Position numbers and translations under genes: made by a program. This document shows, in pieces, positions 32,116 through 39,154 of a stretch of DNA of 64,000 bases. Under the pieces are notes generated by a model. The model made no database searches. It was not told the origin of the DNA and saw only the letters and a program-made list of their open reading frames with translations. The stretch is from Escherichia coli. GTDB taxonomy: Bacteria; Pseudomonadota; Gammaproteobacteria; Enterobacterales; Enterobacteriaceae. Location: NCBI RefSeq assembly GCF_009931435.1, contig NZ_CP043414.1. The stretch is one strand, 5' to 3'. Positions within the stretch are counted from its first letter, which is position 1, and the number at the start of each line of letters is the position of its first letter.

Positions 32116-32685
32116 ATGTTAAAAAAAAGTGCTATTGCTGCGGCATTAGTGATGTTCACCACTTCTGCTTTCGCGCTGGATGGCGGTCAATTAGATTTCG
32201 CGGGTTTGGTGAGTGACAACACTTGCGTCTTGCACGTCAACGGTGGCGCCCAGGACGGTCAGATTACCCTGCAAACCGCCACAACCACTGAAGTTAATCA
32301 GGCCGGTGTTGTCCAACTTGCCAGCCCTGGCGCAAAACCGGAAGCCTTCTCTATTACGATCGATTGCTCGGACGATCCACAGGGCGCCTCTGCCAATCTG
32401 AGCATGGGTTCCGTGTTCTTCAGCAACAGTCAGGGCACTCTGAACAACGATCTCTCCATTAGCCAGGCGGCTACCGGGGTCGCGATTGCCATTCACTACC
32501 TTACCGATGCCACTACCTACGAACAGATGAGAGTGAACGACAGCACTGATGTTAAAAACCTGCTGTTTACCAACGGCAAAGCGGTTTACAACTTTAAAGC
32601 GTCATATGTAAAACAGGCAGCAACAGTTAACGCAACGGCAGGTTATGTCAAAACCAACGCCGCTTATACAGTGACTTACCAGTAA
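32116..32685 (+). CDS. yadN: fimbrial major subunit, YadN family
   Basis: ORF 32071..32685; start placed at MLKKSAIAAALVMFTTSAFA (signal peptide); C-terminal ...YTVTYQ donor-strand motif; first gene of the operon next to folK; appears to be a divergent allele. Confidence 0.8.
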   Translation: MLKKSAIAAALVMFTTSAFALDGGQLDFAGLVSDNTCVLHVNGGAQDGQITLQTATTTEVNQAGVVQLASPGAKPEAFSITIDCSDDPQGASANLSMGSVFFSNSQGTLNNDLSISQAATGVAIAIHYLTDATTYEQMRVNDSTDVKNLLFTNGKAVYNFKASYVKQAATVNATAGYVKTNAAYTVTYQ

Positions 32686-32742
32686 ATATCTGCATCACCC
32701 GACAGCCCACGGGCTGTTGGGTCACTCAATAAGGATAGTGTT

Positions 32743-33486
32743 ATGACCAGGATGTGTCAGTTTATTGTTTCCACTGCTTTCGTCGCATCGACAGCCGTTT
32801 TCAGCCTCACCGCGCAAGCAGATATTGTGCTTTCCGGTACGCGCATTATTTATAATGCCGACCAGAAAGACGTCACATTGCGCATGGAAAACAAAGGTGC
32901 CCGCCCACTATTAGTTCAGACCTGGATTGATACCGGCAGCGAAAATGCCGACCCCAGCACACTGAAAGTGCCTTTTACCGTGACGCCGCCGGTTTCCCGC
33001 GTTGATGGTAAAAAAGGCCAAACGGTTAAAATTGCCTGGAGCGCCAGCCAGACCCTTCCAGCCGATCGCGAAAGCGTTTATTGGTTCAATGCGCTGGAAG
33101 TTCCCCCCAAGATGAACGATGCCGATGCCAAGGGAAAAAACATTCTGCAATTGGCTTTCCGTACCCGTATCAAGCTGTTCTATCGCCCAACCGGCCTGGC
33201 GGGTAACCCGGCTGATGCACCAAAACAGTTAACCTGGCGTCTCCAGTCTTCAGCCGGAAAAGTGGTGTTGCAGGCAACAAACCCAACGCCTTATCACGTC
33301 TCATTCAGCAGTATTACCCTTGCCTCAGGCGGTAATAAATATACCGTGGAAAGCAGTATGGTCGAGCCCAAAAGCAGTGCGGAAATGGTGGTAAAAGGCG
33401 CTCCCCGTTCTGTGTCTGGCGCAACAGTTGAGTACTCAGCCATTAATGATTTTGGCGGTGGCATTGACGGCAAAGTCAAACTTTGA
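32743..33486 (+). CDS. ecpD: PapD-like periplasmic fimbrial chaperone
   Basis: 247-aa ORF with signal peptide and chaperone N-domain sequence (DIVLSGTRIIY...LLVQTWID); symbol by synteny (yadV/ecpD). Confidence 0.8.
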   Translation: MTRMCQFIVSTAFVASTAVFSLTAQADIVLSGTRIIYNADQKDVTLRMENKGARPLLVQTWIDTGSENADPSTLKVPFTVTPPVSRVDGKKGQTVKIAWSASQTLPADRESVYWFNALEVPPKMNDADAKGKNILQLAFRTRIKLFYRPTGLAGNPADAPKQLTWRLQSSAGKVVLQATNPTPYHVSFSSITLASGGNKYTVESSMVEPKSSAEMVVKGAPRSVSGATVEYSAINDFGGGIDGKVKL

Positions 33487-33518
33487 TGCCCACAGACGAG
33501 ATCGGCTGAGATCGTACA

Positions 33519-36719: not shown

Positions 36720-37322
36720 TTGTTTATGAATTATCACAATATAACCTTTGTCTTGCTGCTGTGCTTTGGATATATCGCCATCGGCCACGCCGCCAGTAGC
36801 TCTATGGACGTTACGGTACGTGCTAAGGTCACTGCCAGTACCTGCACGGCGGAATTACGCGATGCGCAGGATCAGCAAGCCACCACCATCGCTATTGGCG
36901 ATGTCTATCTCAACGAGCTTTCCGCTAAATCGAAATACCAGAACTTCAGCCTGGTGTTTTCAAACTGCGAAGGGTTAGCAAAGGATCAGGCAAAAGTTGT
37001 GCTTTCTGCACAGACGGGCTGCGATGGCGCTTCCAGTACCGGTGGCGGATACCGTAATGCACTGACGACGGCGGACGATGATGCGGCAACCGGTGTTGCG
37101 GTTGAAGTGTGGACGACCAATCAGCCAGAAGGTCAGGGCAGCATTCAGCTTAATTGTAAAACCAAACCGACCAGTATTGTTGATTTAGCTGCGGCAACAG
37201 GCTCGAATATTGTCCAATGGCCGCTCAGTGCCCGGATTGTAGTAGCTTCCGATAACACCATCGCTGATGTACGCGCCGGGCAATTCTCCACTAATGCAGT
37301 CTTTTCTGTGACCTATGAGTAG
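36720..37322 (+). CDS. yadL: fimbrial subunit, YadL-like
   Basis: 200-aa ORF with signal peptide, Cys pair and C-terminal VFSVTYE. Confidence 0.75.
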   Translation: MFMNYHNITFVLLLCFGYIAIGHAASSSMDVTVRAKVTASTCTAELRDAQDQQATTIAIGDVYLNELSAKSKYQNFSLVFSNCEGLAKDQAKVVLSAQTGCDGASSTGGGYRNALTTADDDAATGVAVEVWTTNQPEGQGSIQLNCKTKPTSIVDLAAATGSNIVQWPLSARIVVASDNTIADVRAGQFSTNAVFSVTYE

Positions 37323-37895
37323 ATGATTATGAAAACAGTTATCTACATGATTGCGTTTTGGTTTTCTTACAACGTCATTGCAGCCAGTACCAATATTAAT
37401 ATGACTGCCAATATCATCAGCACCAGTTGCCGGGTCACGCTCGACAATAATGGAAATATTGATTTAGGCACAGTGGATTATAGCTATCTGAATAATAATA
37501 CCTCTGTCGATCGCGTCTATTCTGGCGGGCACCCCTTTTATATTACCGTCAGCGACTGCGCGCAGGTAGCGGGGAAAAATCCGGCCCACCTGACCGTCAG
37601 CTTTACGCCTTTGGCAGGCACCCTTGCGCCAACCAACCTCCAGGTATTCGCCAACCAGCAGGTCAACGGTGCAAAAAATGTCGGCGTGGTTATTTTATCG
37701 ACCGAGGACGCACAGCATATTTTCAATGTGCTCGACACGCGTGGTCAACCGCAAAGTATTTACCCCGTGACGCCCGAAACGATCGCTAACGCGACATACC
37801 ACTTTTACGCTCGGATGCAAAAAATTGACCCTACACAAGCGGTAACCAGCGGCGTGGTAAAAGCGAGCGTATTTGTTGGGGTTTATTATGAATAA
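37323..37895 (+). CDS. yadK: fimbrial subunit, YadK-like
   Basis: 190-aa ORF with signal peptide and C-terminal FVGVYYE; start abuts the previous stop. Confidence 0.75.
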   Translation: MIMKTVIYMIAFWFSYNVIAASTNINMTANIISTSCRVTLDNNGNIDLGTVDYSYLNNNTSVDRVYSGGHPFYITVSDCAQVAGKNPAHLTVSFTPLAGTLAPTNLQVFANQQVNGAKNVGVVILSTEDAQHIFNVLDTRGQPQSIYPVTPETIANATYHFYARMQKIDPTQAVTSGVVKASVFVGVYYE

Positions 37896-37921
37896 TCTAT
37901 ATCACTCTCAAGGATGAAGAG

Positions 37922-39154
37922 ATGAACACGCAATACTTTTCCCGGTCTAAGCAGTGGTGTCGAACACTGCTGGTTCTGTTGTCCTTCTATTCAGGCTGCC
38001 TGCACTCTGCCAACACAATAATCGTCGGCAACAAAACCTATTCAGGTTCGACGGAAAATAATTCCGGTCCACAGGGGGATGGCAGCGCAACGGCAACGTT
38101 CAGTACCGGGGCAAATCAGATAGTGATCCCAACCTCAGCGGGGCTACAAAGTAGCAACATCAGGCTCCAGCTGGGTTGGGTGGATACAAACTCATCAGGA
38201 AATAGCCTGATTTACTGTGGCGCTGGCGGAATGGGAACACCATTAACCCTGGAGAGCCATTTCGTTGATGCTCTGGTGAGTGCAGATGGCCACAAGCTCT
38301 TTAAAACCAATGTGCAGGGTCTCTACTTCAGGATGCACATGTACAATGTAAGCTCATTCAAAACAACCTCCAGCAGCGATATCTATATCGGTGATACCCC
38401 CCAACAAACATTGACATTAACGCCCGAGCATTCCGTATGCGTCGCCGATCTGGGGAATTACACAGCCGTAGGCGGTCTGGTCAGTAAAATTGATATTGAG
38501 TTTTATAATGATGGCACCTTCAATCCCAATACGACAGGTAGCATCGCTTTACTGAGCAACAAGGGATATCACTATTCAGTGACAAATGCAGCGCCTGGTG
38601 GTGCATTGACATCGCACTATATTTATCAGACGTTCAACATGGGGAATGTTACGCTTAGCTCGCCAACCTGTACCTCAGCGGTCGTTTCGGGGAATACAGT
38701 TCAGGGAGATACAGTCAGCCTCGGTGAATACAACCCCAAAGACATCCTTGATGGCGTTGACGGTATCCCTTTTGGTATAGCACTAAAGAACTGTTTCCGG
38801 GTCACCAATATCGAGGTCAAAATGACTACCGGCGCCCCTGCAATGTCGGCTGCGTTATTGGGTAACTCGTTAACCGCCGAAGCCAATGCCGCCAACGGCG
38901 TAGGCGTGGAGATAAAAGGAAAATCGAACTCACATTATGCCGAGGTAGTTCTTCACCCTAATGACACCCATTCTGTTTATAAAGCCTATGTCGATACAGC
39001 TGACACGTCGAATGGCATTATTGGTTCAGGCACATCGGGAACCGCAGCAAATCAAACGCTAAATTTTGTCGCCACTCTCAAACAAGACAACAATCAACAA
39101 ATCAGAGGCGGGGATTTCAAAGCGACCGCCGTTTTCTCTATCACCTACCCCTGA
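37922..39154 (+). CDS. yadC: fimbrial tip adhesin, YadC-like (two-domain lectin plus pilin)
   Basis: 410-aa ORF with signal peptide and C-terminal pilin domain (AVFSITYP); last gene before the terminator. Confidence 0.75.
   Translation: MNTQYFSRSKQWCRTLLVLLSFYSGCLHSANTIIVGNKTYSGSTENNSGPQGDGSATATFSTGANQIVIPTSAGLQSSNIRLQLGWVDTNSSGNSLIYCGAGGMGTPLTLESHFVDALVSADGHKLFKTNVQGLYFRMHMYNVSSFKTTSSSDIYIGDTPQQTLTLTPEHSVCVADLGNYTAVGGLVSKIDIEFYNDGTFNPNTTGSIALLSNKGYHYSVTNAAPGGALTSHYIYQTFNMGNVTLSSPTCTSAVVSGNTVQGDTVSLGEYNPKDILDGVDGIPFGIALKNCFRVTNIEVKMTTGAPAMSAALLGNSLTAEANAANGVGVEIKGKSNSHYAEVVLHPNDTHSVYKAYVDTADTSNGIIGSGTSGTAANQTLNFVATLKQDNNQQIRGGDFKATAVFSITYP

Follow-up and report, generated by a model that had tools for sequence, protein, structure and literature searches.

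We analysed a 64,000-nt stretch of contig NZ_CP043414.1 (RefSeq assembly GCF_009931435.1, labelled Escherichia coli by NCBI), hereafter called the window, which carries a chaperone-usher fimbrial operon at the yad locus. Seven intact open reading frames (ORFs) on the + strand occupy positions 32116-39154, between folK (31136-31612) and panB (39272-40066) (Table 1). A first-pass annotation of this DNA had described them as a divergent allele of the E. coli K-12 operon that retains the K-12 gene order. The order is indeed retained: in K-12 MG1655, for which NZ_CP174267.1 served as the reference locus, the same slot reads yadN-yadV-htrE-yadM-yadL-yadK-yadC, yadV also being known as ecpD. Judged by its predicted chaperone, usher, pilins and two-domain adhesin, the segment is a classical chaperone-usher operon. 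By homology, the chaperone and usher would assemble a YadN-like shaft, while the three minor subunits would build a tip fibrillum bearing the YadC-like adhesin. No mobile-element genes were found in the flanks of the operon.

Table 1. Features of the fimbrial locus in window coordinates.
Feature	Position	Strand	Description
folK 3' tail, last ~15 codons	31569-31612	+	left edge of variable cassette
503-nt intergenic region	31613-32115	+	33% GC; presumed promoter/regulatory sites
yadN-like major fimbrial subunit	32116-32685	+	189 aa; Pfam PF00419
Periplasmic fimbrial chaperone	32743-33486	+	247 aa; PapD_N PF00345 + PapD_C PF02753
Outer-membrane usher	33519-36125	+	868 aa; PapC_N PF13954, Usher PF00577, PapC_C PF13953
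yadM-like minor subunit	36142-36714	+	190 aa; PF00419
yadL-like minor subunit	36726-37322	+	198 aa from ATG; ORF opens at TTG 36720
yadK-like minor subunit	37323-37895	+	190 aa; NCBIfam NF011794 205.5 bits, cut-off 132
yadC-like two-domain tip adhesin	37922-39154	+	410 aa
yadC-panB spacer	39155-39271	+	right edge of segment without DNA similarity to K-12
panB + panC	39272-40929	+	housekeeping flank, mosaic, recombination-affected

All five subunits possess a signal peptide, a cysteine pair and a C-terminal TY[QEP] motif, which is TYQ in the YadN-like protein. The Pfam assignments are precomputed and were taken from identical public proteins. PF00419 is assigned to every subunit but the YadL-like one, which has no Pfam match yet matches the NCBIfam YadL and StaE models. 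The chaperone has another possible start at 32752, which would give a protein of 244 amino acids (aa).

Comparison with NCBIfam models separates the assembly machinery from most of the subunits. Like those of E. coli Yad, the chaperone, usher and YadK-like subunit pass models that name the K-12 proteins. The chaperone scores 369.7 bits against NF007398 (cut-off 285), while the usher scores 1365.9 bits against the HtrE-type model NF007337 (cut-off 830), covering model positions 12-863 of 865 and far ahead of the next model (1366 versus 548 bits). In contrast, the YadN-, YadM-, YadL- and YadC-like proteins all fall under the cut-offs. The best matches of the first two are StaA (142.5 versus 230 bits) and StaD (115.1 versus 228 bits), respectively, while the YadL-like protein reaches 168.7 bits against YadL NF011797 (cut-off 206) and the adhesin 270.4 bits against the YadC-type model NF007268 (cut-off 382). 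StaE is also among the subunit matches, again under its cut-off (144.9 versus 372 bits). The grouping of the usher with HtrE/StaC types rests on NCBIfam scores and best matches rather than on a tree.

The fimbrial proteins differ strongly from those of K-12, as the first-pass annotation had claimed. Global protein identity is 55% for YadN, 53% for the chaperone (YadV), 59% for HtrE, 40% for YadM, 37% for YadL, 42% for YadK and 39% for YadC, which is far below the mark of more than 95% that it had named as speaking against a divergent allele. The flanking genes were said to be near-identical to K-12. This holds for their proteins (GluQ 96.6%, PcnB 99.6%, PanB 97.3%, PanC 97.9%, RpnC 96% and PanD 100%, with FolK an outlier at 88.5%) but not for their DNA, which is only 88-96% identical per gene. 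Over 56 kb the whole window is 95.3% identical to K-12, and apart from the operon no sizeable part of it is without a K-12 counterpart. DNA homology to K-12 ends at position 31568, inside the 3' end of folK, and restarts exactly at the panB ATG (39272). Within the operon, synonymous divergence (dS) from K-12 is saturated and nonsynonymous divergence (dN) is 0.33-0.67, versus a dS of 0.21-0.43 in the flanks and 0.64 in panB. GC content at third codon positions (GC3) does differ between the operon (0.52-0.59) and the K-12 yad genes (0.34-0.42). The sense of this difference is opposite to that of a foreign island, since the GC3 of the operon is that of its flanks. As an aside, the K-12 reference record NZ_CP174267.1 contains an ISVsa5 (IS4-like) insertion at record positions 2161-3369 that splits fhuA, which is not a feature of the window.

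Nor does the host appear to be a K-12-like E. coli. Because the window is only ~95% identical to K-12 in DNA, and because it shares protein clusters with Escherichia sp. TW15838, a reference strain of cryptic clade I (PMC7716201), the host is most likely a clade I Escherichia that carries the E. coli label. Its left flank is matched at 90-95% identity by ~5,400 of 5,426 complete E. coli RefSeq genomes and at 95% or more by only 18-19 of them. GCA_002965045.1 is identical to the window at 99.995% over 21 kb. TW15838 belongs to the 90% cluster of the usher, and the representative of the 90%-identity cluster of the adhesin is a protein from Escherichia sp. 94.0001 that is 99% identical.

Among these 5,426 complete genomes, the operon was found in 14 (11 at 97-98% identity, three at 91%). 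A further 5,205 genomes match the usher gene, but at no more than 60-80% DNA identity; the best matches listed for them, at ~66%, are annotated as htrE or outer membrane usher protein. Identical proteins are nevertheless recorded on 160-650 public contigs, including one from a human gut metagenome, where they are annotated only as 'fimbrial protein' or 'outer membrane usher protein'. A scan of GTDB species representatives by adhesin alignment returned no Escherichia representative with this allele; the same scan found Pseudocitrobacter, Citrobacter and one K-12-type Escherichia locus. Plasmid carriage was considered and rejected, as the sole plasmid match was a 75-nt fragment of the chaperone gene and no plasmid copy of the operon was found.

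The arrangement of seven such genes between folK and panB is not confined to E. coli. We saw it in nine other taxa, with occurrences in Salmonella, Citrobacter, Pluralibacter lignolyticus, three Pseudocitrobacter species, E. albertii and E. fergusonii. Wurpel et al. (2013, PMC3559732) treat the Yad fimbriae of E. coli and the Sta fimbriae of Salmonella, which share this locus, as equivalent. At the DNA level, the usher gene of the window is 61.9% identical to that of K-12, 63.2% to that of Salmonella and 64.8% to that of Citrobacter. The corresponding values are 98.0% for Pseudocitrobacter sp. 73, 94.9% for P. vendiensis, 85.3% for E. albertii, 76.9% for Pluralibacter and 75.1% for P. faecalis. 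Usher proteins follow the same pattern, with identities of 98.6% in Pseudocitrobacter sp. 73, 98.4% in E. fergusonii, 97.1% in P. vendiensis, 91.4% in E. albertii and 81.6% in Pluralibacter lignolyticus. The protein database shows one abrupt gap in usher identity, with values either at 79-100% or at 64% and below. The higher set comprises Escherichia spp., E. albertii, Pluralibacter and unnamed sequences, and E. albertii contributes two clusters to it, with 102 and 16 members; the K-12 HtrE cluster (9,649 sequences) lies at 60%. Within the Yad/Sta family, the operon thus represents an old lineage distinct from K-12 Yad.

This places the operon close to, but outside, the named systems. It shares the folK-panB slot, the seven-gene order and the gene sizes with E. 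coli Yad, yet similarity to K-12 yad at the DNA level is lost. With 59-60% protein identity to K-12 HtrE, the usher is also under the 80% threshold for calling a strain Yad-positive, a value that comes from a survey in which EC958 was the query (PMC13245861) and that we apply here to the comparison with K-12 HtrE. Salmonella Sta (staA-G) has the same slot and order too, and StaA, StaD and StaE are among the best NCBIfam subunit matches; however, the Sta usher is only 62% and the adhesin 41% identical in protein, and every Sta model stays under its cut-off. The operon of Pseudocitrobacter sp. 73 belongs to the same lineage, with an adhesin that is 96% identical and a YadM-like subunit that is 100% identical in protein. 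Elsewhere among the relatives the yadM, yadK and yadC modules vary, the adhesins of P. vendiensis, E. albertii and E. fergusonii being only 58-66% identical. Literature searches for the clade I/Pseudocitrobacter allele or for a 'Yad-like' type returned no description. Going by these comparisons, the operon is a further, unnamed lineage of an already known fimbrial family.

We next compared the window with the Pseudocitrobacter loci, where the contrast between operon and flanks is sharp. Against Pseudocitrobacter sp. 73, the operon shows 214 differences over 7,039 nt (97% DNA identity), with exact runs of 301-629 nt, and its dS is 0.00-0.23 (usher 0.074, yadM 0.015, yadK 0.000). The flanks of the same two loci are 75-81% identical, with a dS of 1.06-1.33 for gluQ, pcnB, panC and panD. 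As in the comparison with K-12, homology breaks at folK 31568/31569. Because dS from K-12 is saturated, and because the operon is 94-100% identical to its Pseudocitrobacter counterparts while the flanks are only ~80% identical, we take the operon to be a separate old Yad/Sta lineage that recombination has moved.

A second case was found in E. coli MFDS1022581. From yadN into panC, this genome and the P. vendiensis type strain are 99.65% identical, with 28 mismatches over 8,001 nt, and the final 1,766 nt, comprising the yadC 3' end, the whole of panB and the start of panC, are exact. Identity then switches abruptly to 76-85% inside panC, and it is below 80% upstream of yadN. The left flank of MFDS1022581 is 98.4% identical to the window over 5.6 kb, and both sides reach 94-100% in 500-nt bins; its adhesin is 58% identical to that of the window. 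At least two recent exchanges, as read from these sequences, have crossed the boundary between Escherichia and Pseudocitrobacter.

Escherichia is tentatively favoured as the donor in the MFDS1022581/P. vendiensis exchange. This rests on an Escherichia-like panB in P. vendiensis, on the frequency of the lineage in E. albertii together with its presence in E. fergusonii, and on a promoter region that is Escherichia-only. P. vendiensis and MFDS1022581 have the same panB (100% identity). The P. vendiensis gene shares 94.8% identity with that of the window, but only 89.2% with that of its sister Pseudocitrobacter sp. 73. The other flanks of these two sisters are 96-98.7% identical and their ushers 94.5%. 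In P. faecalis, the flanks are 91% identical, but the operon is a relative at only 75%.

Unlike the window, Pseudocitrobacter sp. 73 and P. vendiensis have a different promoter region and an additional yadN-like gene between folK and the operon (record coordinates 3424-3996 and ~3459-3970, respectively), with ~70% DNA identity to yadN. Neither Escherichia, P. faecalis nor Pluralibacter has this gene, which may be left over from a resident operon that was replaced or may have arisen by tandem duplication.

The junctions within Escherichia are consistent with exchange at the same slot. The last 15 codons of folK co-vary with the fimbrial allele, which places the left cassette junction inside folK: this tail matches that of E. 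albertii, which has the same allele lineage, and differs in K-12 and in genomes of the same lineage as the window with other alleles. The right junction lies at the panB start for K-12 and within panB/panC for the recent events. panB is also more distant from K-12 (88.3% DNA identity, dS 0.64) than the other flanks (~94%, dS 0.2-0.4), and identity of panB/panC to Pseudocitrobacter sp. 73 alternates between 73% and 95% in 100-nt bins. Such swings are, on sequence grounds, a signature of repeated recombination that spills into the housekeeping flank.

Eighteen RefSeq genomes have flanks like those of the window (at least 97.5% identical). This operon lineage is present in 14 of them, 11 with the subtype of the window and three with a subtype like that of P. 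vendiensis, in which the adhesin is 58% identical to the former. Two of the remaining four were examined. 2013C-4282 contains a K-12-like operon, with an usher 88.8% identical to K-12, while 2017-02-2CC (NZ_AP027764.1 4004078-4011167) contains a third allele type, whose usher shares 55% identity with that of the window and 61% with that of K-12. No close relative of this third type was found among the loci compared; its chaperone gene carries an annotated frameshift. At this slot, at least three deep allele classes are found among genomes of this one Escherichia lineage.

Mosaicism extends to the related species. In E. fergusonii CP079884, the yadN, chaperone and usher proteins are 95-98% identical to those of the window, versus 90% for GluQ, 64% for YadM and 66% for YadC. 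Its right flank (record 17157-20484, matching window positions 39272-42804) is closer, with 97% DNA identity from rpnC to panD and 98-99.6% protein identity from panB to panD. That the right flank is closer than the left suggests a larger tract introgressed between E. fergusonii and clade I Escherichia. E. albertii shares the folK tail and the entire 503-nt upstream region with the window (95.6%). Its dS from the window is 0.12 for the chaperone, under that of the flanks, and 1.4-1.75 from yadM to yadC, above that of the flanks.

The 410-aa product had been proposed as the tip adhesin, and structure prediction bears this out. It aligns at full length with YadC relatives, with conserved cysteines, and comprises a receptor-binding domain at residues ~30-245 (nt 38009-38656) and a pilin domain at ~246-410. 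In the AlphaFold model the N-terminal domain reaches predicted confidence (pLDDT) values of 80-96. The fold matches the LpfD (5afo), FimH, UclD, AtfE, F17G/GafD-type and MrkD adhesins as well as the FimA/FimI pilins, but sequence identity to these solved two-domain tip adhesins is just 9-15%. A sequence search of the PDB gave only weak matches to the pilin domain and no structure for the receptor-binding domain.

The receptor-binding domain is the more variable part of the protein. It is 99.5% identical to that of Pseudocitrobacter sp. 73, 58% to that of E. albertii, 49.8% to that of MFDS1022581 and P. vendiensis, and 33% to that of K-12 YadC, to which the pilin domain is 47.5% identical. Xylose and annexin A2 have been reported as YadC ligands (PMC13245861, PMC6921372). 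Given the 33% identity, the receptor probably differs from that of K-12 YadC. In close comparisons, every gene of the operon shows purifying selection (dN/dS 0.00-0.27), which together with the intact ORFs indicates that selection maintains the operon. One strain departs from this: in CP027520.1, a complete genome with the exact adhesin of the window, the chaperone gene is split into ORFs of 216 and 42 aa (record 4823-5565), which looks like a frameshift and would leave this strain without a working operon.

We also looked for regulatory sequences in the 503-nt region upstream of yadN. It contains no GATC (Dam) sites and no strong or convincing inverted repeats, and a search for a phase-variation switch found none there. 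One promoter-like site (31707-31736) does not rise above chance level, and the terminator-like sites in the region are likewise at chance level. The region is missing from Pseudocitrobacter upstream of 31974. Yad has been reported as non-phase-variable and as repressed by H-NS, being silent under laboratory conditions (PMC13245861). An AT-rich upstream region without an invertible switch or Dam sites is in line with a fimbria that is not phase-variable. AT-richness differs by part, however, as the low GC content of the promoter region does not continue into the coding sequence. Considering that coding GC3 is genome-typical and well above that of K-12 yad, H-NS silencing over the gene body, beyond the promoter, may be weaker than in K-12.

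Our preferred explanation, to which we assign a probability of roughly 80%, is that this is an intact and selectively maintained Yad/Sta-family operon of a deep lineage other than that of K-12, in a slot that exchanges cassettes by homologous recombination. The exchange itself is shown by the sequence comparisons: crossovers fall in or beside folK, yadN, panB and panC and replace whole operons or modules, above all the yadK-yadC end. The cassette lineage is common to clade I Escherichia, E. albertii, E. fergusonii and Pseudocitrobacter, and is shared more distantly with Pluralibacter. We lean, with rather less confidence, towards a broader version, in which the slot exchanges cassettes across genera and gut Enterobacteriaceae draw on a common Yad/Sta pool, swapping either whole operons or the yadK-yadC end. 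The GC-typical lineage could then be the older resident of Escherichia, with the AT-rich, H-NS-silenced K-12 Yad as a later arrival.

Several observations weigh against parts of this explanation. Escherichia has been sequenced far more densely than Pseudocitrobacter, which leaves the direction of exchange uncertain, and GC3 does not tell the two candidate donor genera apart. The clade I panB is itself atypical, with ~88% identity to K-12, E. albertii and Pseudocitrobacter sp. 73 alike. The clade I assignment draws on 95.3% identity over 56 kb and on the protein clusters shared with TW15838, and is therefore local rather than whole-genome. The function of the operon is read from homology only, and confidence is low for the pilin domain of the adhesin model, which is to be expected when the donor strand of a subunit is missing from the model.

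One rival explanation is a direct ortholog of K-12 yad that diverged in place, after clade I and E. coli split, under strong diversifying selection. It accounts for the shared locus, gene order and similar gene lengths, and the adhesin and minor subunits are the most divergent products here, as published for Yad within E. coli (PMC13245861). Yet the usually conserved usher is only 59% identical to K-12, and the low dN/dS points to purifying rather than positive selection. Both K-12-like and third-type alleles occur between flanks of this kind, and the allele of the window is present in another genus at 97% DNA identity. Because dS is saturated in the operon versus 0.2-0.6 in the flanks, and because Pseudocitrobacter holds a 94-100% DNA match, we consider divergence in place highly improbable and rejected it on the dS contrast; the earlier description holds as to location, gene order and extent of divergence, but 'allele' in it should not be taken to mean change in place. 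The least probable explanation is that contamination or chimeric assembly created the similarity to Pseudocitrobacter. Both Pseudocitrobacter genomes are draft assemblies, but the tracts are embedded in contigs of 477 kb and 264 kb, bordered left and right by Pseudocitrobacter-type sequence, with sharp junctions within genes, and an independent Logan assembly of a sequencing run repeats the arrangement, which together make a chimera unlikely. Moreover, Pseudocitrobacter carries the extra yadN-like gene, which is not in Escherichia. We rejected an artefact on this contig context.

That the operon is a cryptic remnant which no longer makes fimbriae also seems improbable, if less so. The window and most other carriers have seven undamaged ORFs, hundreds of contigs encode exactly the same proteins, and the low dN/dS led us to reject pseudogenisation, even though K-12-type Yad is silent in laboratory conditions owing to H-NS (PMC13245861) and CP027520.1 has a split chaperone gene. 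The alternative that we take most seriously, while still finding it doubtful, makes Escherichia the recipient of a lineage native to the group of Pseudocitrobacter sp. 73 and P. vendiensis. In its favour, the lineage sits at the slot in three Pseudocitrobacter species as well as in their relative Pluralibacter, and it is rare among complete E. coli genomes. However, it is often met in E. albertii and E. fergusonii, and an Escherichia-type promoter region is shared by clade I and E. albertii. Within Pseudocitrobacter, the ushers of sp. 73 and P. vendiensis are more diverged than the flanks, the P. vendiensis panB resembles that of Escherichia clade I, and the distance of the P. faecalis relative despite its close flanks indicates that the operon is not simply vertical in this genus.

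Yad fimbriae are counted among the 'core-associated' adhesins of E. coli and have been associated with infections of the bladder, of the bloodstream and of birds. Surveys that identify Yad by usher identity (at least 80%) would score such strains as Yad-negative despite a complete, selectively maintained operon of this family, whose adhesin is very different. The locus also provides a clear and datable case of homologous allelic replacement across a genus boundary in which no mobile element is involved. This bears on the spread of adhesin repertoires, and possibly of host or niche tropism, among gut Enterobacteriaceae. Among the loci examined, the receptor-binding domain, which is without a solved homologue by sequence, occurs in at least four versions with 33-58% mutual identity, and these would form a natural panel for mapping specificity.

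Two kb from the fimbrial slot, on the - strand, lies rpnC (yadD; 41150-42070), a recombination-promoting nuclease gene. Any link between rpnC and the recombination activity of the slot is pure speculation. At this position the gene is found in Escherichia and Pseudocitrobacter (60-62% aa identity), and it is missing from the Salmonella, Citrobacter and Pluralibacter loci. Four tandem copies of a 12-nt unit within the gene (41276-41323) encode GIEK repeats, and the length of its product ranges from 300 to 314 aa among strains.

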